Source of the DNA: Candidatus Uhrbacteria bacterium
GTDB taxonomy: Bacteria; Patescibacteriota; Patescibacteriia; JACQRZ01
Reading direction: 5' to 3'
Assembly (NCBI GenBank): GCA_016209345.1
Contig: JACQWH010000011.1
Span: 1-36,110, forward strand
DNA length: 36,110 nt
The notes beneath the pieces are model-generated. The model worked only from the letters and a program-made list of their open reading frames with translations. It did no database searches and was not told the DNA's origin. Positions 4,904-17,518 of the stretch are shown here, piece after piece (the stretch's first letter is position 1; each line of letters starts with the position of its first letter). The position numbers were made by a program, and so were the translations under genes.

Positions 4904-8318
<3,415 letters not shown>

Positions 8319-8416: not shown

Positions 8417-8471
8417 GATGATAATAAAGGCCGTGGGGTCTTTTTTAATTACGGAAAACAACAATTTTACT

Positions 8472-8678
8472 ATGAGTGCGCTTACCACAGCCATACAGGC
8501 GACAACACGATATTTTCGTGATTCATACAATGAAATGCGCAGCGTCGTTTGGCCTTCACGAAAGCAAACCGTGCTTCATACAATCATGGTCATTGTCTTC
8601 AGTATTATCATTGCCGTATTCTTGGGTTCTCTCGATCTGCTCTTTTCGTTCATTCTTGAAAAAACGCTTGTTAAATAG
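8472..8678 (+). CDS. secE: preprotein translocase subunit SecE
   Basis: Small protein (MSALTTAIQATTRYFRDSYNEMRSVVWPSRKQT + one TM helix) immediately upstream of nusG. The motif E..KV.WP and the position are classic. Start moved to ATG 8472. Confidence 0.75.
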   Translation: MSALTTAIQATTRYFRDSYNEMRSVVWPSRKQTVLHTIMVIVFSIIIAVFLGSLDLLFSFILEKTLVK

Positions 8679-8679
8679 T

Positions 8680-9225
8680 ATGCCAAAGCAAGTAGAGGAA
8701 CAAGGATGCCACTGGTACGCCATTCATACGAATTCAGGGTATGAAGAGGCGGTTGTCCGCAATCTCAAGCAGCGCGTGGAGTCCATGGACATGGAGGAGA
8801 AAATTTTTAATGTCCTCATTCCGACGGAAACGAAAATAAAGATAAAGAATGGCAAGCGCAAAACAGTCAAGGAAAAAATATTTCCCGGCTACGTGCTTGT
8901 ACAGATGCTTGTCACCGACGACTCGTGGTATGTCGTGAGAAATACGCCTCATGTCACCGGCTTTATCGGAAGCGGTACCACCCCCTCGCCGGTGTCAGAC
9001 CAGGAAATAGAATACCTCATGAAGCGCATGGGTGTTGAAGAGCCAAAATACGAGTTTGACCTGCCGACAAATACGCCCGTGCTCATTATTGACGGGCCGT
9101 TTAAAAATTTTGAGGGAAAGGTGCTGGAAGTGGATGCTGATAGGGGGAAGGTAAAAGTGCTCGTCACGATGTTTGGTCGCGAGACGCCTGTTGAACTCGA
9201 CTTTTTACAAATTAAAAAAACCTAA
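8680..9225 (+). CDS. nusG: transcription termination/antitermination factor NusG
   Basis: WYAIHTNSGYEEAV..., an NGN domain, then KOW (ID GPFKNFEGKVLEVD...KVKVLV.MFGRETPVEL). The start at ATG 8680 is 1 nt after the secE stop. The longer ORF from 8476 overlaps secE out of frame. Confidence 0.9.
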   Translation: MPKQVEEQGCHWYAIHTNSGYEEAVVRNLKQRVESMDMEEKIFNVLIPTETKIKIKNGKRKTVKEKIFPGYVLVQMLVTDDSWYVVRNTPHVTGFIGSGTTPSPVSDQEIEYLMKRMGVEEPKYEFDLPTNTPVLIIDGPFKNFEGKVLEVDADRGKVKVLVTMFGRETPVELDFLQIKKT

Positions 9226-9237
9226 AACACCTATTCT

Positions 9238-9666
9238 ATGGCCGCAAAAAAAATCAAGGCGCTTGTAAAACTCCAGATTCCGGCAGGAAAGGCAAATCCC
9301 GCACCTCCGGTCGGTCCGGCACTTGGCCAGCACGGTTTGAATATCGCCGAATTCTGTCAAAAATTCAATGCTGCAACCGCGGGTAAGGGCGATGATATTA
9401 CGCCTGTTGAGATTACTGTTTATGAAGACCGCACCTATACGTTCATTCTTAAAACGCCTCCTGCCTCAGAGCTTATCAAAAAAGCGGCAGGCATTCCAAA
9501 GGGCTCACCCAAAGCATTGACGCAAAAGGTGGCAAAGATAACGAAAGATCAGCTCAAGGAGATTGCCGAGAAAAAGATGCCCGACTTGAATGCGAATGAT
9601 ATTGATGCCGCGATGAAAATAATCGCTGGAACTGCCCGACAAATGGGCGTTGAAATCGCAAAGTGA
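9238..9666 (+). CDS. rplK: 50S ribosomal protein L11
   Basis: [30 protein letters not shown] is the canonical L11 N-terminal domain. 142 aa. Confidence 0.95.
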
Positions 9667-9802
9667 TTTAATCATAAGGTGGGACCTTAAGGCAATGAAA
9701 AATTTGAAATTATAGATGAGCGTATCCCCTTTTTTCCGACTATCATTTATAATCTATCATTTCTAATTACTGCGGGGGTTTGTACCACCAAAGGAGAACG
9801 GT

Positions 9803-10489
9803 ATGAGAAAAAAATCTCCCTTATTCAGCGAGAAGATAAAGGATCTTGATTTGAAGCGAACGGTATTTCAGCCGCGAGAGGCGCTTGATCTTGCGCAAAA
9901 GTTGTCGTACGAGAATTTTGATGCATCCCTTGAGGTGCATGTGCGCACCGGCATTGATCCCAAAAAAGGCGATCAGATTATTCGAGCAAGCGCCACACTG
10001 CCCCATGGCACAGGAAAAACAAAACGTGTTGCGGTCTTTGCGGACGGCGAAAAGGCATTGGAGGCAAAAGAGGCGGGCGCTGACCTTGTCGGCGGAACAG
10101 AGCTCATTGCGGAGATTAAACAATCGGGAAGGGCGGATTTTGACATCGCCATTGCTACGCCCGATATGATGAGAAATCTTGCTGGCGTAGCTAAGGTTCT
10201 TGGCCCGCGGGGACTCATGCCATCGCCGAAAAACGACACCGTCACGCTCAACATAAAGGCAGCCCTGGATGCTGTGAAGGGTGGAAAAATAAACTTCAAA
10301 AATGACGATTCGGGCATTGTTCACCAGGTCATCGGCCGGCGATCATTTACCCTTGATAATCTCTATGAAAATTATGCCGCATTTATCGAGTCGGTACGAA
10401 AAGCGCGTCCTGCGCCGGTAAAGGGTACCTATATCAAGGCAGTCACCATTGCCACAACCATGGGCCCGGGCATCCGCATCGCGGTGTAG
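9803..10489 (+). CDS. rplA: 50S ribosomal protein L1
   Basis: 228 aa with FDASLEVHVRTGIDPKKGDQIIRASATLPHGTGK and ATPDMM..L...AKVLGPRGLMP. AAAGGAGAA RBS 7 nt upstream. Confidence 0.95.
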   Translation: MRKKSPLFSEKIKDLDLKRTVFQPREALDLAQKLSYENFDASLEVHVRTGIDPKKGDQIIRASATLPHGTGKTKRVAVFADGEKALEAKEAGADLVGGTELIAEIKQSGRADFDIAIATPDMMRNLAGVAKVLGPRGLMPSPKNDTVTLNIKAALDAVKGGKINFKNDDSGIVHQVIGRRSFTLDNLYENYAAFIESVRKARPAPVKGTYIKAVTIATTMGPGIRIAV

Positions 10490-10496
10490 CGGCAAA

Positions 10497-10577
10497 GAAA
10501 TCGGATCTCCCCTCATCTCAAGTAAAATAGTCGTGTTATAATAACAACGTCATCTTATTTTCAGGAGATCCGATTTC
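10497..10577 (+). promoter_or_regulatory. perfect 14-bp inverted repeat enclosing an extended -10 promoter-like element
   Basis: GAAATCGGATCTCC (10497-10510) and GGAGATCCGATTTC (10564-10577) are exact reverse complements. The 53-nt loop contains TGtTATAAT (10534-10542). Confidence 0.4.
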
Positions 10578-10585
10578 ATCCATCT

Positions 10586-12367
10586 ATGCCATCGAATACT
10601 AGGACATGCCAAAAATGCCAGACCCGGTTTCCTATTGAGGAACGTGATCTGGCATTTTATATTTCCGTGAATGTACCGGAGCCGACGTTCTGTCCAACAT
10701 GCCGTGCGCGTCGTCGTATGGCGTGGATCAATTTTCATAGTCTTTACAACAGGAAACTCACCGATGGTGGTAAAAACGTTATCTCAATGTATTCGCCCGA
10801 TAAGCAGTTTAACGTAGTTGAGGATAGCGCGTGGTGGGGCGATACCTATGACCAAACTAGCTACGGCCGTAATTATGATTTTTCGCGTCCTTTTTTTACG
10901 CAATTCCAAGAATTGTTGCGTGTCGCGCCGCTCCCCCATCTTCATCGTGATTTTTCCCGCATGGAGAACAGCAACTATTGTAATGCGTGCACGGGGCTAA
11001 AAAACTGTTATCTCTGTATGGCTGCCGATGAAGCAGAGGACACGTACTATGGTTTTAAGATTGAAAAACTTAAAAATTGTGTTGACGTATCCTTCACCAA
11101 CAACTCGGAGCTGTGCGGAAACAGCGCTTTTCTATCGGAATGCTACAATGTTCAATTTTCAGAACACTGCGAAAACTCCAACGATCTCTCTTTTTGCAGT
11201 GATTGCAACGGGTGTACATCGTGCGTGGGATGTATCAATCTGCGAAATAAGTCGTATTGCATTTTTAATGTTCAATACGACAAGGACGAATATGAGAACC
11301 GCGTTAAGGAGATGCGGCTTGACACGTTCTCCGCTGTCTCAAAGATCGCCTCTGAAGCGCAGCAATTCTTCCGCACACAGCCACATCGCTTCATGCATGG
11401 TCGCAACAATGTTGATGTAACCGGAGATTTTATCTATAACTCTAAGAATGTTACCGACTCCTACGCCGTACAGTTTTCAGAAAATTGTCGATTCGTAAAC
11501 TCTCTCTCCGCCATAGATGAGCGGAATGCCGATGCGTACGACTGGAGTCAATTTGGCATTGGTTCGGAGCGTATCTATGAGTGCTCCTGGTGCGGATTGC
11601 GATGCAATACCGTGCTCTTTTCTTTTTGGAACTACTATGCGCACAATCTCACCTACTGCTTTGGGTGTCATTCATCAGACAATCTCTTTGGGTGTATTGG
11701 CTTAAGAAAAAAGCGCTACTGCATTCTCAATAAGCAATATTCAAAGGAAGATTATGAGGAGCTTGTTGAAAACATTCGCAAACAGATGGCGGATGTTCCC
11801 TATACGAGTACCGACGGGACAATCTACCGCTATGGCGAGTTCTTTCCGTCGGAACTTTCGCCGTTTTGCTACAACGAGACCGAAGCGTATGATCATCTTC
11901 CCCTCACCAAAGACAGCGCGGTAGCGAAGGGATTCAGCTGGTACGATGCACCGCAGCGACAGCCCATTGCGGGAGCCGTTTCTTCAAAGGATATCCCTGA
12001 CTCTATTGATGCTCTCACGGCAGGTTGTGCATCCTCGACATTTATTTGTTCATCGTATACCGATGATGGTGAAGACGCAATTATGCGTGGATGTACGAGA
12101 TACTATCGATGCATCCCCCAAGAAATCTCATGGTATCGGAAGAAACATATTCCGCTTCCGCGGTCATGTCCGCAATGCCGGTATCGCGAGCGACTCAAAC
12201 ACCAACCGCTTTTTCGTTCGTATGACCGCGCGTGCATGTGCCATGAGCAGACGGGGCACGATTGGCATCAGGGTGTGATATGCGAAAAACAATGCGTGAC
12301 ATCATATGCTCCTGACCGAGTAGAACCCATCTATTGCGAAAAATGCTATTCAGCGGTAGTGTATTAA
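10586..12367 (+). CDS. Cys-rich multi-zinc-ribbon protein of unknown function, paralog 1
   Basis: 593-aa ORF with about 39 Cys by my count. N-terminal CQKC-x3-F-x-I-x3-D-x2-FY...PEPTFCPTCRARRR. The C-terminus repeats the same module (YRCIPQEISWYRKKHIPLPRSCPQCRYRER...CEKC). The central Cys ladder is present twice (CxGC..L[RK].K.YCI.N.QY.K[DE][DE]YE). The stop is 3 nt before the gatB ATG. Confidence 0.7.
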   Translation: MPSNTRTCQKCQTRFPIEERDLAFYISVNVPEPTFCPTCRARRRMAWINFHSLYNRKLTDGGKNVISMYSPDKQFNVVEDSAWWGDTYDQTSYGRNYDFSRPFFTQFQELLRVAPLPHLHRDFSRMENSNYCNACTGLKNCYLCMAADEAEDTYYGFKIEKLKNCVDVSFTNNSELCGNSAFLSECYNVQFSEHCENSNDLSFCSDCNGCTSCVGCINLRNKSYCIFNVQYDKDEYENRVKEMRLDTFSAVSKIASEAQQFFRTQPHRFMHGRNNVDVTGDFIYNSKNVTDSYAVQFSENCRFVNSLSAIDERNADAYDWSQFGIGSERIYECSWCGLRCNTVLFSFWNYYAHNLTYCFGCHSSDNLFGCIGLRKKRYCILNKQYSKEDYEELVENIRKQMADVPYTSTDGTIYRYGEFFPSELSPFCYNETEAYDHLPLTKDSAVAKGFSWYDAPQRQPIAGAVSSKDIPDSIDALTAGCASSTFICSSYTDDGEDAIMRGCTRYYRCIPQEISWYRKKHIPLPRSCPQCRYRERLKHQPLFRSYDRACMCHEQTGHDWHQGVICEKQCVTSYAPDRVEPIYCEKCYSAVVY

Positions 12368-12370
12368 CAT

Positions 12371-13879
12371 ATGTTCACCTATACCATCGGACTGGAAATC
12401 CATGTCCAACTGAAAACAAAGTCAAAAATGTTTTGTCGCTGTTCAAACGATGGTGAAAATCAACCGGCGAACACGACAATCTGCCCTGTGTGCATGGGGC
12501 ATCCAGGCACGCTGCCGGTCATAAACGAACAGGCAATCCGTTGGGGCGTAAAAACGGCACTAGCGTTGAACTGCACGATAAACGAAATCAGCAAGTTTGA
12601 CCGTAAAAACTATTTTTACCCTGACCTTCCCAAGGGGTATCAAATATCCCAATACGACAAACCAATCGGCATAATGGGGCACGTTGACATCACCATACCC
12701 GACGGAGGGATGCGAACAACCGCCCGGATTGGCATCACGCGCCTGCACATGGAGGAAGATGCGGCAAAGCTGCTCCATGCACCCGAGGCAGGTGCCTCAT
12801 TGGTTGATTTTAATCGTTCTTCCACTCCGCTGATGGAAATTGTCACGGAGCCGGATTTTGTTTCTCCGGCCGAGGCGAAAGTATTTTTGCAAGACCTGCG
12901 CCTGCTCACGCGTTACTTGGACGTATCTCACGCGGATATGGAAAAGGGGCATCTGCGCTGCGATGCGAATGTTTCCATCAATGTGACGAGCGATGACGGC
13001 ATTACCACGCAGTCCCCCATTTCCGAAATTAAAAATCTTAATTCCTTCCGTGCCGTTGAACGTGCCCTTGAATACGAAGGAAATCGTCTCTGGGAAGAGT
13101 GGCAAGGTGGCGGTGATGTTCGCACACGGAACTATAAAATTACTGTCGGATGGGACGACGATAAGCAGGAAACAGTGCTCCAGCGCTGGAAGGAAGAGGC
13201 GCACGACTACCGCTATTTTCCCGAACCGGACATTCCACCGCTCCATTTCACGCATGAGTATATCACAACCGTTAAGTCGGAGATTCCCGAGCTGCCGAAT
13301 CAAAAAAAAGAACGATTCTGCCGTGATTTCGGCATCACGCCTGAGGATGCTCGTATTCTTGTTGAGGATAAAGAGCTCGCGGCATTCTTTGAAAATACCG
13401 CATCGGAACTCGATGCGTGGCTGTGCAGTATGGATTCCTGCGACGACGCGTTCAAGACGCGCACATACAAGTTGCTTGCGGGGTGGGTCATCAATAAACT
13501 GGGCGGACTTCTTGCCGTCACGGAGACACGGATTGAGCAGTGCACTGTTTCTCCGGCAGATATGGCAAAACTAATCGCGCTTATTGCAGAAGAGCAAGTA
13601 AATAGCACTACGGCCCAAAAAGTGCTGGAGGCAATGATCCAAAACGGCATCGATCCACTGACGATGATCCAAGAGCAGGGACTCGAACAAATTCAGGACA
13701 CCGGCCTTATCGCATCGGCCTGTCAAAAAGCTGTCGAGGCGAATCCTGATGCTGCCGCTAATTTCAAAAACGGCAAAGAAAATGCGATTATGTTTCTTGT
13801 CGGTCAGGTGATGAGGGAGCTCAAAGGAAAAGGTCAGCCGGAACTTGTTAAAGACGAATTAAAAAAATTACTCGGATAG
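12371..13879 (+). CDS. gatB: Asp-tRNA(Asn)/Glu-tRNA(Gln) amidotransferase subunit B
   Basis: IGLEIHVQLKTKSKMFCRC...CPVCMGHPGTLP, QISQYDKPI, RLHMEEDAAKL, MEKGHLRCDANVS, and a C-terminal YqeY-like tail (FLVGQVMRELKGKGQPELV). No gatA or gatC adjacent. Confidence 0.93.
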   Translation: MFTYTIGLEIHVQLKTKSKMFCRCSNDGENQPANTTICPVCMGHPGTLPVINEQAIRWGVKTALALNCTINEISKFDRKNYFYPDLPKGYQISQYDKPIGIMGHVDITIPDGGMRTTARIGITRLHMEEDAAKLLHAPEAGASLVDFNRSSTPLMEIVTEPDFVSPAEAKVFLQDLRLLTRYLDVSHADMEKGHLRCDANVSINVTSDDGITTQSPISEIKNLNSFRAVERALEYEGNRLWEEWQGGGDVRTRNYKITVGWDDDKQETVLQRWKEEAHDYRYFPEPDIPPLHFTHEYITTVKSEIPELPNQKKERFCRDFGITPEDARILVEDKELAAFFENTASELDAWLCSMDSCDDAFKTRTYKLLAGWVINKLGGLLAVTETRIEQCTVSPADMAKLIALIAEEQVNSTTAQKVLEAMIQNGIDPLTMIQEQGLEQIQDTGLIASACQKAVEANPDAAANFKNGKENAIMFLVGQVMRELKGKGQPELVKDELKKLLG

Positions 13880-13902
13880 GGTCTTGTCCCACTATCCCAT
13901 CC

Positions 13903-13931
13903 TTGTCATCCCGCCGAAGGGCGGGAACCAG
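13903..13931 (+). repeat. hairpin repeat copy R5 (TTGTCATCCCGCCGAAGGGCGGGAACCAG)
   Basis: It matches the reverse complement of copy R9 (17425-17453) at 29/29 positions. The stem is ATCCCGCC/GGCGGGAa with loop GAAG. It lies between gatB and the second Cys-rich gene. Confidence 0.9.
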
Positions 13932-13939
13932 ACAAAAAT

Positions 13940-15604
13940 ATGGATTCAAAAACAAAACAGTGCACCGCGTGCAATGCACATTATCAAATTGAACCGGAGG
14001 ATCTTGAGTTTTACCAAAAAATGAACGTTCCCGTACCGCGGTTGTGTCCCGACTGCCGTTTTAAGCGGAGAGCGCAGTTTCGCAATGAACGAATATTATA
14101 CAGCAGAACGTGCGACAAATGCCATAAAAACATTATTTCTGTCTACCATGAGGAATCGCCCTACACGGTGTACTGCCTTGAGTGTTTTGATGCAGACGAT
14201 TGGGATGCTTTCCAATATGGCGCTCGGTATGACGCCAGTAGACCCTTCTTTGAACAAATGGATGAGCTATTGAAAAGGGTTCCAAAAAAAGCCCTCCTTA
14301 TTACTGGCGGCGACAATAACGTGAATAGTGACTATACAAACGTGGCTGCAAATAATAAGAATTGCTATCTGCTCTTTAATACTGCTTACTGCGAAGATTC
14401 GATGTATTCGCGCGGGATCAAGGGGTGTCGCGATACGGTTGACGCCTATTTCGGTATTGAAATGGAGCGTTGCTATGAGGCAGTGAATGTTCACAAATCA
14501 TCGGGGGTCATATTCGGACACAATGTAACAAACTGCGTAGATTCATGGTTCCTCCTCTCGTGCACTGACTGCATAAACTGTTTTGGCTGTGTCAACCTCC
14601 GCCATAAGAGCTACCATTGGTTTAATGAAGAACTTTCAAAAGATGACTATGAGAAGCGGCTTACTCACGTAAAGGGAAGCTATCAACGGATGAATGAGAT
14701 GCGCAAGAAATTTGAAGCGTTCGCACTCCAATTTCCTCATCGGGAAAACAACAACATGAAATCAGAGGACTGCACCGGCGACTATCTCTTCTCATCAACG
14801 GCCTTGCGTGATTGCTATGAGATTACCGAAGGAGAAAACTGCAAATACATGTTCGCGTCCAAGAATATCAAGGACTCGTATGATACGCTTGGCTATGGCT
14901 ATGGAAGCGAACTGCTCCTTGACTGCGCGGCAACAGGGTATGCCAATCGTGTCATCGGCTCGTATTGGGTTGAGAATGGCCATGATTGCGAGTATTGCTT
15001 TTTTACGCTCTCGTCGGAATATTGTTTCGGTTGTGATGGATTAAAGAAAGGGAAATTCTGCATCCTGAACAAACAGTATAGCGAGGAAGAATATCACGCA
15101 ATTCGAAAAACAATTAGTGAGGAGCTTACGCGTGATGGTGAGTACGGATTATTTTTTCCTCCTCATATTGCACCATTTGCCTATAATGAAACAGTCGCGC
15201 AGGACTATATGCCTCTTGCAAAAGACGAGGCGCTTGCACAAGGGTTTCGCTGGCAAGAAAAGCTGCCAATGACAACAGGTGCCGAAACGCTTGCTCCCGA
15301 ATCTATCCCCGACCACATCATGCAGGTGACAAGCTCTATCACAAAGGATATCCTTGCGTGTCTTGACTGCAAGCGAAATTATAAAATTACGCCCAAGGAA
15401 TTTGCATTTTATCAAAAAATGTCGCTTCCCGTTCCTCGGCAATGCTTTAGCTGTCGGCATGTGGACAGAATCAAACGCCGTGGTCCAATGAAACTTTTTG
15501 ATCGTTCATGCGCAAAGTGTTCTAAAGATATTCGCACGACATTCGCGCCACCCCGCACGGAGATCGTGTATTGTGTTGAGTGCTATCAAACGGAAGTAAT
15601 ATAA
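13940..15604 (+). CDS. Cys-rich multi-zinc-ribbon protein of unknown function, paralog 2
   Basis: 554-aa ORF with about 34 Cys. The N-terminal module CTACNAHYQIEPEDLEFYQKMNVPVPRLCPDCRFKRRAQFRNERILYSRTCDKCHKNIISVY...VYCLECF is repeated at the C-terminus (CLDCKRNYKITPKEFAFYQKMSLPVPRQCFSCRHVDRIKRRGPMKLFDRSCAKCSKDI...VYCVECY). It is colinear with paralog 1. Confidence 0.7.
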   Translation: MDSKTKQCTACNAHYQIEPEDLEFYQKMNVPVPRLCPDCRFKRRAQFRNERILYSRTCDKCHKNIISVYHEESPYTVYCLECFDADDWDAFQYGARYDASRPFFEQMDELLKRVPKKALLITGGDNNVNSDYTNVAANNKNCYLLFNTAYCEDSMYSRGIKGCRDTVDAYFGIEMERCYEAVNVHKSSGVIFGHNVTNCVDSWFLLSCTDCINCFGCVNLRHKSYHWFNEELSKDDYEKRLTHVKGSYQRMNEMRKKFEAFALQFPHRENNNMKSEDCTGDYLFSSTALRDCYEITEGENCKYMFASKNIKDSYDTLGYGYGSELLLDCAATGYANRVIGSYWVENGHDCEYCFFTLSSEYCFGCDGLKKGKFCILNKQYSEEEYHAIRKTISEELTRDGEYGLFFPPHIAPFAYNETVAQDYMPLAKDEALAQGFRWQEKLPMTTGAETLAPESIPDHIMQVTSSITKDILACLDCKRNYKITPKEFAFYQKMSLPVPRQCFSCRHVDRIKRRGPMKLFDRSCAKCSKDIRTTFAPPRTEIVYCVECYQTEVI

Positions 15605-15613
15605 ATACGGCAT

Positions 15614-15904
15614 ATGCCAGCCGAACCATCACGACCAGATAAATCAATTTTTGACCATCCTGAGATCCCGGAACTAAATTCTATTGAAAAAATTATGTAT
15701 ATAGCAGAAATGCTTTCTATGCGCGGTGTTCATTGGGATAGCGGTATATGGAAAGTACCCATGGATATAACAAACCTTTCAAAAATTGGCCCATGGCTTA
15801 CAGTGTGTCAGCGGGAGGGTTTAAAAATTGTAGATATTACAAAAGATATGGATCCAGTAAGTGCAACTCCTTGGATGTATTTCAAGCGTGAAGATGCATT
15901 CTAG
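15614..15904 (+). CDS. hypothetical small protein
   Basis: 96-aa ORF starting 9 nt after the paralog 2 stop. It is visibly more AT-rich than its neighbours, and its last 23 nt overlap the convergent 3' end of miaA. No family recognised. Confidence 0.35.
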   Translation: MPAEPSRPDKSIFDHPEIPELNSIEKIMYIAEMLSMRGVHWDSGIWKVPMDITNLSKIGPWLTVCQREGLKIVDITKDMDPVSATPWMYFKREDAF

Positions 15905-16943
15905 CCATCATGAATTTTTTTATATTTCTAACTCCCTGAGAATATGACGTTACGTATGTAATGTCATTTTGCTTTCGATACCAGGTGAGTTGGCGGCGTG
16001 CATAGTGATGAATGGCAAATTTCAAACGTTCGATCATTTCTTTTCTTGATCCCCCGGCAGAGCCGGGCAAGCTGGCCATCTTGCCTGCCGCAGGCAGGGG
16101 TCGGGATGACAAGGAATCCAGATATTCGCTGATGAATCGGCTTTCAAGCCCCAGTCCTTGGAGCCATTTTTTTGATACACCATTTTTACGCAGTCGCTCC
16201 ACCTCACGAATCATTCCTTTTTTAATTCGCTCGTCCACTCGTTTGTCAATACGTTTGTAAAGTGTCGCTCGCGGTACATCAATGCAGAGTTGAAGGCAAT
16301 CATAGCGCTTTGTCATTCCGATCCCCTCCTTGTCATCCCGACCGGAGTGGAGGGATCTACCAGTTTGTAAATACCATTCTGACGGCTTCCTTTTTGTCGC
16401 ACGGTAAATTTCCAGCGCGCGCATAACACGCCTCTTATTATCGCGATCGTTCCAGTCGCGCATATTTGTATCAGCTTGATACAATTGTTTTTGGAGCACG
16501 GCCAGTGATTTTTTTTCTAGCCTATTTCTGTATTCATGATCCGGTGGAACACTTGGAATATCATAATCATAGAGAACAGCGCGCACATAGAGCTGTGTGC
16601 CCCCAACAAGAAATGGCACTTTCCCCCTGCTCCAAATGTCCTGAATCGCACGATCTGCACATGTTCTATAATCAGCCAGCGTGAACGGCTGGACACCGCC
16701 CTTCCACCGCTTTGGCGGCGTGACAATATCAAGGCAATGATGCCGAACAATGTTCTGCTCTTTCTTTGTTATTTTTCCGGTACAGAGGTTAAGCTCTTTG
16801 TAGATCTGTCGTGAATCGGCCGAGACAATTTCACCGTTAAACTTTTTTGCAAGCTTAATGGCCATGTCTGACTTTCCCGACGACGTCGGCCCGATGATGG
16901 CAATTACCTGGTTATCGTGTGACTTGACATTATTTTCAGCCAT
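15882..16943 (-). CDS. miaA: tRNA dimethylallyltransferase (i6A37), carrying two in-frame repeat-derived insertions
   Basis: P-loop IIGPTSSGKS, SADSRQIYKELNLCTGK, LVGGTQLY, RALEIY and YARRQLTW are all MiaA hallmarks. It is longer than E. coli MiaA at two places that coincide with repeat copies R6 and R7. Confidence 0.88.
   Translation of the reverse strand: MAENNVKSHDNQVIAIIGPTSSGKSDMAIKLAKKFNGEIVSADSRQIYKELNLCTGKITKKEQNIVRHHCLDIVTPPKRWKGGVQPFTLADYRTCADRAIQDIWSRGKVPFLVGGTQLYVRAVLYDYDIPSVPPDHEYRNRLEKKSLAVLQKQLYQADTNMRDWNDRDNKRRVMRALEIYRATKRKPSEWYLQTGRSLHSGRDDKEGIGMTKRYDCLQLCIDVPRATLYKRIDKRVDERIKKGMIREVERLRKNGVSKKWLQGLGLESRFISEYLDSLSSRPLPAAGKMASLPGSAGGSRKEMIERLKFAIHHYARRQLTWYRKQNDITYVTSYSQGVRNIKKFMMARMHLHA
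16084..16121 (-). repeat. hairpin repeat copy R6, inside the miaA coding frame
   Basis: The minus strand reads CTGGATTCCTTGTCATCCCGACCCCTGCCTGCGGCAGG (GTCATCCCG head + CCTGCC/GGCAGG hairpin). It is translated as LDSLSSRPLPAAG in miaA. Confidence 0.8.
16311..16362 (+). repeat. hairpin repeat copy R7 (compound), inside the miaA coding frame on the opposite strand
   Basis: TGTCATTCCGATCCCCTCCTTGTCATCCCGACCGGAGTGGAGGGATCTACCAG has two GTCAT[TC]CCGA heads and a GATCCC(C)TCC/GGAGGGATC stem. Its reverse complement is translated as TGRSLHSGRDDKEGIGMT in miaA. Confidence 0.8.
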
Positions 16944-17093
16944 AGTAATATGATAGTAAAGACTTTCGGCCTGTGGTTTATACTACCACGCGTAGCGGAA
17001 GGTCTTCTATAATGAACTCTCTGCACGAGGGTTTATTTAATTATTATCGAAATACTCTAAAGATACGACGCGCTGTGATCCTGCCATCTCCAC

Positions 17094-17122
17094 TTGTCAT
17101 CCCGCCGAAGGGCGGGATCCAG
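17094..17122 (+). repeat. hairpin repeat copy R8, the left terminal inverted repeat flanking the GIY-YIG gene
   Basis: TTGTCATCCCGCCGAAGGGCGGGATCCAG, ending 3 nt from the GIY-YIG stop codon (17126-17128). Confidence 0.9.
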
Positions 17123-17125
17123 TCC

Positions 17126-17416
17126 CTAAATTAAATCCTCATACAAATCCCTCCACTCTGGGTTCTGTTCCTCAATAATTCGAAGTTTCCATATCCGGTT
17201 CCATTCTTTTAGAGCCTTCTCTCGAGCGATTGCATCCTTGACGTCCTGGTATTCCTCGTAATATACAAGAAGTTTCACGTGATATTTCTGTGTAAATCCA
17301 GATATCAGCCCCTCTTTATGCTCCCATACTCGTCGCGCCAGATCATTCGTGACACCAATATAGAGCGTACCATTACGTTTGCTTGCGACGATATAGACAA
17401 AATAGGAATTCATCAT
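17126..17416 (-). CDS. GIY-YIG nuclease family protein (UPF0213/COG2827-like, stand-alone URI domain)
   Basis: 96 aa. YFVYIVASKRNGTLYIGVTNDLARRVWEHK...REKALKEW matches GIY-(x10)-YIG, the conserved R and H/E, and the C-terminal E..(I/L)K.W motif of the small bacterial GIY-YIG family. Confidence 0.85.
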   Translation of the reverse strand: MMNSYFVYIVASKRNGTLYIGVTNDLARRVWEHKEGLISGFTQKYHVKLLVYYEEYQDVKDAIAREKALKEWNRIWKLRIIEEQNPEWRDLYEDLI

Positions 17417-17424
17417 TTTTTGGC

Positions 17425-17453
17425 CTGGTTCCCGCCCTTCGGCGGGATGACAA
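17425..17453 (-). repeat. hairpin repeat copy R9, the right terminal inverted repeat flanking the GIY-YIG gene
   Basis: CTGGTTCCCGCCCTTCGGCGGGATGACAA. Its reverse complement matches R8 at 28/29 and R5 at 29/29. It begins 8 nt upstream of the GIY-YIG ATG. Confidence 0.9.
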
Positions 17454-17518
17454 GAGTGAATGGTGGAAATGACGCAGACTGTGCGCTCGGGATGACAAGA
17501 ATGAACGGTGGAAATGAC
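17444..17518 (+). repeat. two 30-nt direct repeats (45-nt period) extending from the R9 end
   Basis: GGGATGACAAGAGTGAATGGTGGAAATGAC (17444-17473) and GGGATGACAAGAATGAACGGTGGAAATGAC (17489-17518) match at 28/30. Confidence 0.8.

Follow-up and report, generated by a model that had tools for sequence, protein, structure and literature searches.

Why should gatB, a well-known gene, be enclosed by two large cysteine-rich genes that fit no characterised family? Such an arrangement is found in a stretch of 36,110 nucleotides (nt) from Candidatus Uhrbacteria bacterium (contig JACQWH010000011.1), called the window below. Here, the gene of a 593-amino-acid (aa) protein with 39 Cys residues (paralog A; 10586-12367, + strand) lies directly upstream of gatB (12371-13879, +), and that of a 554-aa protein with 34 Cys residues (paralog B; 13940-15604, +) lies directly downstream of it. 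An earlier note made from the same sequence, whose coordinates and Cys counts for the two open reading frames (ORFs) were verified, had taken the tight coupling to this amidotransferase gene as a sign of a nucleic-acid- or translation-linked role. Comparison across genomes gives a different answer. The neighbourhood of gatB is a matter of a few close relatives, whereas the family to which A and B belong is very large and has another conserved genomic partner, previously unreported: a pair of soluble P-loop ATPases that resemble the coupling proteins VirD4 and TraD.

One very large family with ancient paralogs

A and B are colinear and share 34% identity over their full length (BLASTP, E = 5e-114), a similarity far above chance that makes them paralogs, in agreement with the earlier note. 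An exhaustive profile search of 1.84 billion representative sequences (E <= 1e-30) places them in a family that comprises 2,298 clusters or more at 50% identity, and the named sources of these proteins are nearly all Patescibacteria. Full-length homologs in the thousands also bear out the coding call for both ORFs. The orthologs of B are 50-89% identical across Uhr-, Jorgensen-, Nomura-, Lipton-, Ryanbacteria and others, measure ~555 aa and are all named 'hypothetical'. Those of A, a member of a rarer subfamily, are 40-68% identical, compared with the 34% that separate A from B. A and B represent separate, ancient subfamilies of one very large family. Its proteins are typically ~560 aa long, mildly acidic (isoelectric point ~6) and rich in Cys (~6% of residues). 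Neither a transmembrane (TM) segment nor a signal peptide is found in A or B, and judging by their sequences the family proteins are soluble.

The genomic context of the family was surveyed in a forward census of 79 loci, taken with up to 10 kb of flank per side from genomes that represent their species and contain at least one family gene, and probed with all window proteins. Two or more family copies are present in 47 of these loci, nearly always on the same strand, and as many as 11 called ORFs occur in a single locus. Within such arrays the median identity is 39% and the maximum 53%, and 142 of 149 array genes are closer to a relative in another genome than to their own array. Recent tandem amplification as the source of the arrays was rejected, given that the members are ~39% identical to each other and have closer orthologs in other genomes. 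B-type genes form a clean single-copy group, the most conserved one of the family, with 28 members in 28 loci. A fixed order of subfamilies, which would suggest a multi-subunit operon, was considered as well and discarded, since no order is conserved and the subfamilies mix.

A small divergent branch of the family carries N-terminal fusions to a GNAT acetyltransferase or to a protein of the inositol-monophosphatase (IMPase) family (P0346, L166 8001-10196; P0409, L168 3687-6185). The contigs of this branch encode a richer metabolism, and one of them is labelled Bdellovibrionales. Its members have partly lost the Cys residues of the first finger described below and keep an FY...PxP...RRR motif. 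The order in the fusion, IMPase followed by the family protein, is also that of separate genes in a metagenome contig (L082, 6864-7631). The idea taken from these fusions, that IMPase or GNAT genes might be recurrent neighbours, did not hold in the 159 loci of the two censuses. A look-up of cluster names returned none for divergent members, and a single family fragment was found among 2.9 million viral contigs, from which the family is essentially absent. Literature searches found no earlier description of the Cys-rich family or of its linkage to the ATPases.

A recurrent partner: orphan VirD4-like ATPases

When all non-family neighbours in the forward census were clustered, the top cluster was a P-loop ATPase with the Pfam domains TrwB_AAD_bind, T4SS-DNA_transf, DUF87 and TraG-D_C. 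It accounts for 52 copies in 29 of the 79 loci and lies immediately upstream of the family array in 17. Three forms can be told apart, a short one of ~490 aa, a distant one of ~460 aa and a long one of ~650-800 aa, and the sequences read are devoid of TM domains. A reverse census of 80 metagenome loci anchored on the short form (L086-L165) recovers the family in 61 loci, and in 58 it lies within 2 kb of an ATPase gene, where chance would give a few percent by a rough estimate for a 1-Mb genome. Among loci of at least 12 kb, the family is present in 36 of 38. B-type copies occur in 15 of the 80 ATPase loci, and a locus from Gracilibacteria shows the same linkage of family and ATPase. Gene neighbourhood thus supports a functional association of the family with orphan ATPases of the type IV coupling protein (T4CP) kind.

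Two types of locus recur. In one, a PaaX-like gene on the minus strand is followed by dnaK, the long ATPase, one to three family genes, sometimes rsmE on the minus strand, the short ATPase and dnaJ; 19 of 27 long-to-short ATPase pairs enclose one to three family genes in this way. The long ATPase carries on its tail a finger of the form CxxC-x17-CxxC, which scores above the Pfam cutoff in 30 of 32 long copies. The other type runs from secD and secF through a protein with sigma70 region 4 and HARE-HTH domains, the distant ATPase, a small membrane protein and the short ATPase, sometimes followed by cutA, to a family array.

Several further features of these loci deserve mention. The short ATPase is unusually conserved for Patescibacteria, with 65-83% identity between genomes and a mean column identity of 73%. 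In 37 of 113 cases (L086-L165, e.g. L103, L121 and L145), dnaJ is the next gene downstream of it, so that the usual dnaK-dnaJ pair is split by the two ATPases and the family genes between them. A DUF5674 protein (~116 aa) and an ORF of ~97 aa are found in the family slot between the ATPases, or just before the family genes (L016, L024, L033, L039, L147 and L155), and CutA1 genes repeatedly adjoin family members. The protein with sigma-70 region 4 and HARE-HTH (L024 4877-5905 and its equivalents) always precedes the unit of ATPase, membrane protein and ATPase in the secDF-type locus, and its region 4 matches the anti-phage model MzaA.

ATPases of this kind have been surveyed before. A study from 2025 found that 2,918 of 3,035 Patescibacteria genomes (96%) encode VirD4-type T4CP homologues; of the 5,713 counted, 148 lie near virB4 (PMC12102498). 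It also noted that Ca. S. epibionticum does not require the T4CP gene to grow as an epibiont, and could offer exaptation only as a suggestion (PMC12102498). By their shared Pfam domains, the ATPases described here appear to be these published orphan homologues.

Finger modules around a predicted solenoid

All parts of the family proteins follow one order, established from an alignment of 30 sequences, with a column consensus and Cys conservation drawn from 423 sequences: an N-terminal finger pair, central repeat 1, central repeat 2, an acidic linker and a C-terminal finger pair. In B, these parts correspond to aa 1-94 (13940-14221, +), 118-245 (14291-14674, +), 266-400 (14735-15139, +), 401-467 (15140-15340, +) and 468-554 (15341-15601, +). 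In A, the N-terminal module spans aa 1-94 (10586-10867, +), repeat 1 aa 118-244 (10937-11317, +), repeat 2 aa 266-414 (11381-11827, +; placed by hhalign and the repeat register) and the C-terminal module aa 482-593 (12029-12364, +), which contains lineage-specific inserts and was delimited by the alignment and by hhalign of the N- against the C-module.

The two terminal modules (~90 and ~87 residues) are homologous to each other (hhalign probability 99.8%, E 4.7e-28), and each consists of a zf_Tbcl-type finger, a treble clef, followed by a CxxC-x17-CxxC ribbon. B has four Cys tetrads in all: C8/11/36/39 and C58/61/79/82 at its N-terminus, modelled at a predicted local distance difference test score (pLDDT) of ~90, and C474/477/502/505 and C524/527/545/548 in its C-terminal module, which has a net charge of +9. 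Three of the four are conserved as Cys in 89-100% of sequences. This includes the four Cys of the first finger, C8, C11, C36 and C39 (94-98%), and the pairs C524/C527 and C545/C548, which are separated by 17 residues and are Cys in 98-99% of the 423 sequences. The remaining tetrad, C58/61/79/82, is kept in 56-79% of members and was lost in A, whose N-terminal module retains the zf_Tbcl-type CxxC...CPxCR finger next to a second ribbon without Cys. The linker of B is likewise conserved (YGxFFP...YNET...GFxW; net charge -6; pLDDT >90), with Y402, G403, P407, Y415, N416 and W438 invariant in the 30-sequence alignment.

The centre of the protein is an internal duplication, as repeats 1 and 2 of B align with an hhalign probability of 99.8% and an E value of 1.7e-27. 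The column consensus shows a register of [N/D]-[C/S]-hydrophobic-x-x-hydrophobic-x4-[s/c]-[E/K], and each half comprises about nine such coils. In A, repeat 1, supported by hhalign against repeat 2, has ~nine coils of 12 residues and ends in CSDCNGCTSCVGCINLRNKSY, and in repeat 1 of B, which is predicted to be solenoid-like, the 12-residue periodicity is visible in NCYLLFNTAYCE / DSMYSRGIKGCR / .... An AlphaFold2 model of the full-length protein reaches a pLDDT of 82 and a predicted template modelling score (pTM) of 0.85, and a model of the central domain built on a 129-sequence alignment places strands at the same 12-residue period. The centre is accordingly described here as two narrow beta-solenoid halves at the level of a prediction, to which we assign moderate confidence because the central pLDDT lies between 60 and 85 and the beta-helix matches in Foldseek are insignificant.

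What do the many cysteines do? The earlier note had proposed that the CxxC pairs and a CxxCxxCxxCxxC run could bind Zn or Fe-S clusters, and the two parts of this proposal fared differently. The terminal tetrads are typical of zinc sites, and likely serve as structural Zn sites of the treble-clef or ribbon type. In the centre, only C142, C214, C217 and C365 are at least 87% conserved; the other Cys are mostly variable, and several occupy columns in which Ser is about as common. Most of them are probably not metal ligands and rather contribute to packing in a tight coil, because their columns either hold no conserved residue or alternate between Cys and Ser. The run itself, CSDCNGCTSCVGC, closes a 12-residue repeat, at a point where Cys and Ser often replace each other. 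Its four positions common to A and B are Cys in 66%, 80%, 98% and 90% of sequences, C204 of A falling outside the scored columns. Its spacing is C-x2-C-x2-C-x2-C, not the CxxCxxCxxxCP of a ferredoxin-type 4Fe-4S site, and Pfam gave no Fer4 match. As the run is only partly conserved and shows this Cys/Ser alternation, an Fe-S site at CSDCNGCTSCVGC is neither supported nor excluded.

Distance to described families

The earlier note could not assign the two proteins to any characterised domain, and searches with hidden Markov models and predicted structures led to the same outcome. The core of the family has no Pfam, NCBIfam, PADLOC or PDB-sequence model, be it with the window proteins or, for Pfam, with 30 members. 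Foldseek searches of the PDB with the full-length and central-domain models gave no match with E below 3, the weak ones all being beta-helices. Pentapeptide, hexapeptide, bactofilin and pectate-lyase-like repeats had no Pfam match on the central region of the 30 members and no Foldseek match to the PDB at E of 3 or lower. Against viral structures (BFVD), Foldseek matched the zinc-ribbon module alone. A and B had no match among the PADLOC defence models.

Only two Pfam families recur across members, and both concern the ends of the protein: zf_Tbcl_2 in 24 of 30 and zf_Tbcl in 19 of 30. The C-terminus of B stays below the cutoffs of zf_Tbcl_2 (PF23477; 22 bits, cutoff 27) and TIGR04272 (19.3, cutoff 36), and A matches neither. 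At the level of the family, zf_Tbcl_2 reaches a best E value of 3.7e-9. It can therefore be regarded as related but divergent, since 24 of 30 members match while B itself stays below the cutoff. Similarly, the N-terminus of A scores 14.5 bits against zf_Tbcl (PF13451), below the cutoff of 24, whereas the 19 matching members do so at E <= 1, with a best value of 1.4e-5. LIM domains are detected below threshold, with a best Pfam E value of 0.015 in 6 of 30 members and a PDB-profile E value of 0.003 at the C-terminus. A segment within the first central repeat of A (aa 123-226; 10952-11263) weakly matches phrog_15341, a phage family of unknown function (E 3.7e-5). Judged by sequence-profile and PDB fold searches, the proteins stand as a large, architecturally new family that is far from any described system.

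The association with gatB is local

The gatB of the window is genuine (NCBIfam NF004012, 584 bits against a cutoff of 338; Pfam GatB_N and GatB_Yqey) and encodes 502 aa. The junctions reported for it were confirmed on the sequence: the TAA stop codon of A (12365-12367) is followed by 3 nt and the gatB ATG at 12371, and a spacer of 60 nt (13880-13939) separates gatB from B. From this spacing, we infer that A and gatB are co-transcribed. Neither gatA nor gatC was found beside gatB or elsewhere among the scanned window ORFs of at least 120 aa, as the earlier note had observed for the direct neighbourhood. Nor do A, B or the 30 members show homology to GatA (amidase) or GatC in Pfam and NCBIfam.

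This picture does not extend beyond close relatives. Within 10 kb of a family member, gatB occurs in 1 of the 79 forward-census loci, and rplK, nusG and secE are near a family member in one other locus of the 79. From the 80 loci anchored on the ATPase, including the 61 with family members, gatB is absent. A metagenome contig (L082) with orthologs of A (68% identical) and B (82%) has the order rplA, A, gatB, an IMPase gene and B. The closest genome, also a Candidatus Uhrbacteria (L080; B 89% identical), shares synteny with the window over 20 kb but has gatB directly after rplA and no A at this site; in the next relative (L081; B 74% identical), B lies between metK and an AbiE module. The A-gatB-B arrangement is local synteny of a few close Uhrbacteria relatives and is uninformative on function. 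The census that the earlier note had called for thus found the family in other contexts without gatB, so that a gatB-linked role is not supported and the step from tight coupling to a translation-linked role falls away. A broad nucleic-acid-related role of the family is possible, though not on grounds of gatB. More generally, the case is a caution that tight spacing to a well-known gene in one genome can be local synteny without functional signal.

A candidate set of clients for the orphan ATPases

In our reading of these data, family members could be paralogous clients or specificity adaptors of the orphan coupling-protein ATPases, a view that we consider about as likely to prove right as wrong. 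A hexameric-type ATPase would serve a set of paralogs, the duplicated finger modules at the two ends might serve for docking or for binding nucleic acid, and the solenoid could provide a rigid, paralog-specific surface. Docking through the fingers is suggested by the presence of the same finger type on the tail of the long ATPase. In a more far-reaching version, which we put forward tentatively and think rather doubtful, the family would be the missing partner of the orphan VirD4-like ATPases that nearly all Patescibacteria encode, and the two would make up a core machine that is specific to the phylum and has no relation to type IV secretion. In it, two soluble ATPases of the coupling-protein type, anchored by a small membrane protein, would serve to load, remodel or translocate as many as about a dozen solenoid paralogs with zinc-finger caps, each of which would specify a different cargo or target, be it nucleic acid or protein. 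The paralogy, architecture, size, arrays and genomic linkage of the family are observations; zinc binding, the solenoid fold, a physical interaction with the ATPases and every functional step are proposals built on them.

Several points weigh against this reading. Gene neighbourhood is no proof of physical or functional interaction, and the co-location may reflect an expression context, because the flanking dnaK, dnaJ and secDF are highly expressed core genes. In the forward census, about 60% of the loci lack an ATPase at a distance of up to 10 kb, and B-type orthologs are mostly found among other housekeeping genes, e.g. beside mur genes or ArgRS/IleRS. The window has no such ATPase either, so that A and B are tied to the ATPases by family membership alone; with most family loci elsewhere lying in housekeeping operons, the two can be viewed as 'satellite' copies. 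The solenoid is a prediction for a domain modelled at the pLDDT given above, and the neighbouring ATPases are equated with the published T4CP homologues by way of shared Pfam families.

Among other explanations, one that takes up the idea of the earlier note has A and B act with GatB, for example by standing in for GatA or GatC or by assisting the amidotransferase as accessory proteins that bind tRNA, and be translationally coupled to it. The 3-nt junction between A and gatB is shared by the window and L082, gatB is followed by B in the window, L080 and L082, a B-type copy lies ~1.2 kb upstream of gatB in a Staskawiczbacteria locus (L011), and gatA and gatC are missing among the scanned ORFs. 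However, the census largely refutes this idea, A is absent from the site in L080 and B lies elsewhere in L081, up to 11 paralogs per locus fit poorly with a one-to-one subunit, and similarity to GatA or GatC was not detected in Pfam or NCBIfam; we give it next to no credence. The proteins could also be general RNA- or ribosome-associated zinc-finger proteins, each paralog with its own RNA or ribonucleoprotein, in which case the adjacency of the ATPase would be incidental. Translation genes are indeed frequent neighbours (ArgRS, a small ORF, a family gene and IleRS in several loci; rsmE in the ATPase locus; rplA, gatB and miaA in the window), and a run of mnmA, a miaB-like gene, rnc and der leads straight into a GNAT-fused member. 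The finger modules carry a basic charge, as in the C-module of B, and belong to a type widespread in small zinc proteins, and stable, ancient paralog subfamilies would fit a set of distinct specificities. Yet translation neighbours are expected by chance in Patescibacterial genomes, which are dominated by translation genes, and none of the RNA-related neighbours shows a recurrence like that of the ATPase. The contexts of other members fused to GNAT or IMPase are unrelated, and Foldseek against the PDB and the PDB-sequence profile search detected no known RNA-binding fold, which leaves this an unlikely explanation overall.

Narrow Cys-rich beta-solenoids are typically extracellular, and the family might on that account comprise exported structural or effector proteins, such as Cys-ladder solenoid fibres or adhesins, which T4CP-like ATPases would move across the membrane, in analogy to arrays of secretion-system substrates or of VirB2 pilins. 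Export would agree with the tandem arrays found beside ATPases of the coupling-protein type, a small membrane protein and secDF, with the positive charge of the C-terminal module and with the VirB2 arrays of 2-11 genes known in the phylum (PMC12102498). It is nonetheless a distinctly unlikely account, given the lack of a signal peptide or TM segment, an N-terminus that is itself a zinc finger of a kind characteristic of cytoplasmic proteins, B-type orthologs more than 50% identical across classes, which would be unusual for surface or effector proteins, T4CP homologues that are almost never near virB4, and ATPases without TM domains in the sequences read. A role as metal or redox buffers, or as zinc-dependent holdase chaperones together with DnaK/DnaJ and CutA1, would make sense of the high Cys content, of the CutA1 genes that adjoin family members directly, in 8 of 79 loci and also in many of the ATPase loci, and of the arrays between dnaK and dnaJ. 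We regard it as improbable, though, as conservation is weak for most of the central Cys, with Ser often in their place, many invariant residues are not Cys, and stable ortholog groups with a fixed modular architecture point to specific recognition over bulk metal binding. Finally, a part in a defence or conflict system is brought to mind by weak matches of the ATPase to the PADLOC models Mad8 and HerA, the MzaA-like region 4 of the sigma-like neighbour, AbiE and ParE genes near some copies and the multi-paralog arrays that are common in conflict systems. Such systems tend to form patchy islands, in contrast to the highly conserved short ATPase and the syntenic loci within core operons seen here; the family has no PADLOC match and is essentially absent from viral contigs, and its paralogs are ancient and not rapidly diversifying. 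A defence role is therefore highly improbable.

A large part of bacterial diversity falls to the Patescibacteria, and much of their small proteome is without known function. With up to 11 genes of ~1.7 kb, an array can take up roughly 2% of a 1-Mb genome. The linkage gives the orphan T4CPs a concrete set of candidate partners and two defined loci.

Surroundings of the trio in the window

Upstream of A lie secE, nusG, rplK and rplA (8418-10489, +), identified from their translations and, by Pfam annotation, present in the same order in L080 and L082. The earlier note had remarked on this position, where rplJ, rplL and rpoBC usually continue the run after rplA. The order was seen as described, and neither rplJ, rplL nor rpoB was found among the scanned ORFs of at least 120 aa. 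The lineage lacks this continuation after rplA (window 9803-13879), and the closest relative has rplA followed directly by gatB (L080 7625-9845). Downstream, miaA (15882-16943, -; Pfam IPPT) is convergent with B and syntenic in L080. The rest of the window is generic housekeeping, with L25, FtsW, a GyrB with a probable intein, miaA, miaB, ThrRS, DnaE, SerRS and a further class II aminoacyl-tRNA synthetase. The description of the neighbourhood as rich in tRNA and translation genes thus holds for enzymes acting on tRNA, namely miaA, miaB and the three synthetases, but not for tRNA genes, since ARAGORN and Rfam scans of the window found neither tRNA genes nor any other RNA genes. Across A, gatB and B, a promoter scan did not rise above shuffled expectation, and a terminator scan gave nothing informative.

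GyrB (4947-8318, +) measures 1,123 aa in the window and 673 aa in the syntenic L080; the extra segment is intein-like, beginning with CFSGETKV and ending with VHNS. A 96-aa ORF (15614-15904, +) starts 10 nt past the stop codon of B and runs into the 3' end of miaA, which is encoded on the other strand. Matches above any curated cutoff are lacking in Pfam, NCBIfam and PHROGs, no gene is called at the site in L080, and the ORF may not be a genuine gene.

The spacer between gatB and B holds a GC-rich hairpin repeat of ~30 nt, CTTGTCATCCCGCCGAAGGGCGGGA (13902-13931, +), which corresponds to the repeat copy seen by the earlier note. It is not a canonical terminator, because no T-run follows it. Two further copies (17093-17122, +; 17430-17450, -) form an inverted pair that brackets a GIY-YIG ORF (17126-17416, -), where 100 shuffles led to an expectation of 0 copies. 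Two tandem 31-nt units (17443-17518) lie beside one hairpin copy, and a partial copy is found within the miaA ORF (16321-16340). The repeat looks like a small element of the repetitive extragenic palindromic (REP) or miniature inverted-repeat transposable element (MITE) type that is tied to the GIY-YIG gene.

Comparison with known systems

The terminal modules of A and B find their closest counterpart in the zinc-finger domains zf_Tbcl, zf_Tbcl_2 and TIGR04272, e.g. of small zinc proteins of Methanosarcina mazei, with which they share Cys spacing and flanking motifs, and zinc binding of this domain type was demonstrated by inductively coupled plasma mass spectrometry (PMC12704099). Proteins of the zf_Tbcl type consist of a single domain of ~40-60 aa or occur as short tails, whereas in A and B two finger pairs cap a core of ~350 aa. 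LIM-domain adaptors offer another parallel, as they possess a double Cys4 finger like the C-module and show weak profile similarity to it (E 0.003; 6 of 30 members). LIM domains are eukaryotic and act as protein-docking modules, and their spacing and the conserved FY/PxP motifs of the family set the two apart.

For the centre of the protein, beta-solenoids such as the pentapeptide-repeat proteins Qnr/MfpA and the bactofilins share short regular repeats with small or hydrophobic residues at inward positions. The Tenebrio antifreeze protein has 12-residue coils, as predicted for the repeats of the family. None of the beta-solenoid families shows a significant match in sequence or fold, and the family differs from them by a probably cytoplasmic location, by its zinc-finger caps and by the two homologous halves of its predicted solenoid.

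The neighbouring ATPases share the nucleotide-binding and all-alpha domains of the coupling proteins VirD4, TraD and TrwB, and loci in which family genes adjoin these ATPases recall the logic of systems of T4CPs and their substrates, in which a dedicated ATPase lies beside related client genes. They depart from these systems in that the ATPases are without a TM domain in the sequences read and no relaxase is present. The putative clients here are conserved zinc-finger repeat proteins, neither effectors nor relaxosomes. T4CP homologues of the phylum are almost never near virB4 (PMC12102498). Lastly, the VirB2 pilin arrays of Patescibacteria resemble the family arrays in being tandem, in comprising 2-11 paralogs and in their connection to a component derived from a type IV secretion system (PMC12102498). 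VirB2 pilins are small, Sec-dependent membrane proteins encoded near virB4, whereas the members of this family measure ~560 aa, appear soluble and are encoded near orphan T4CPs.

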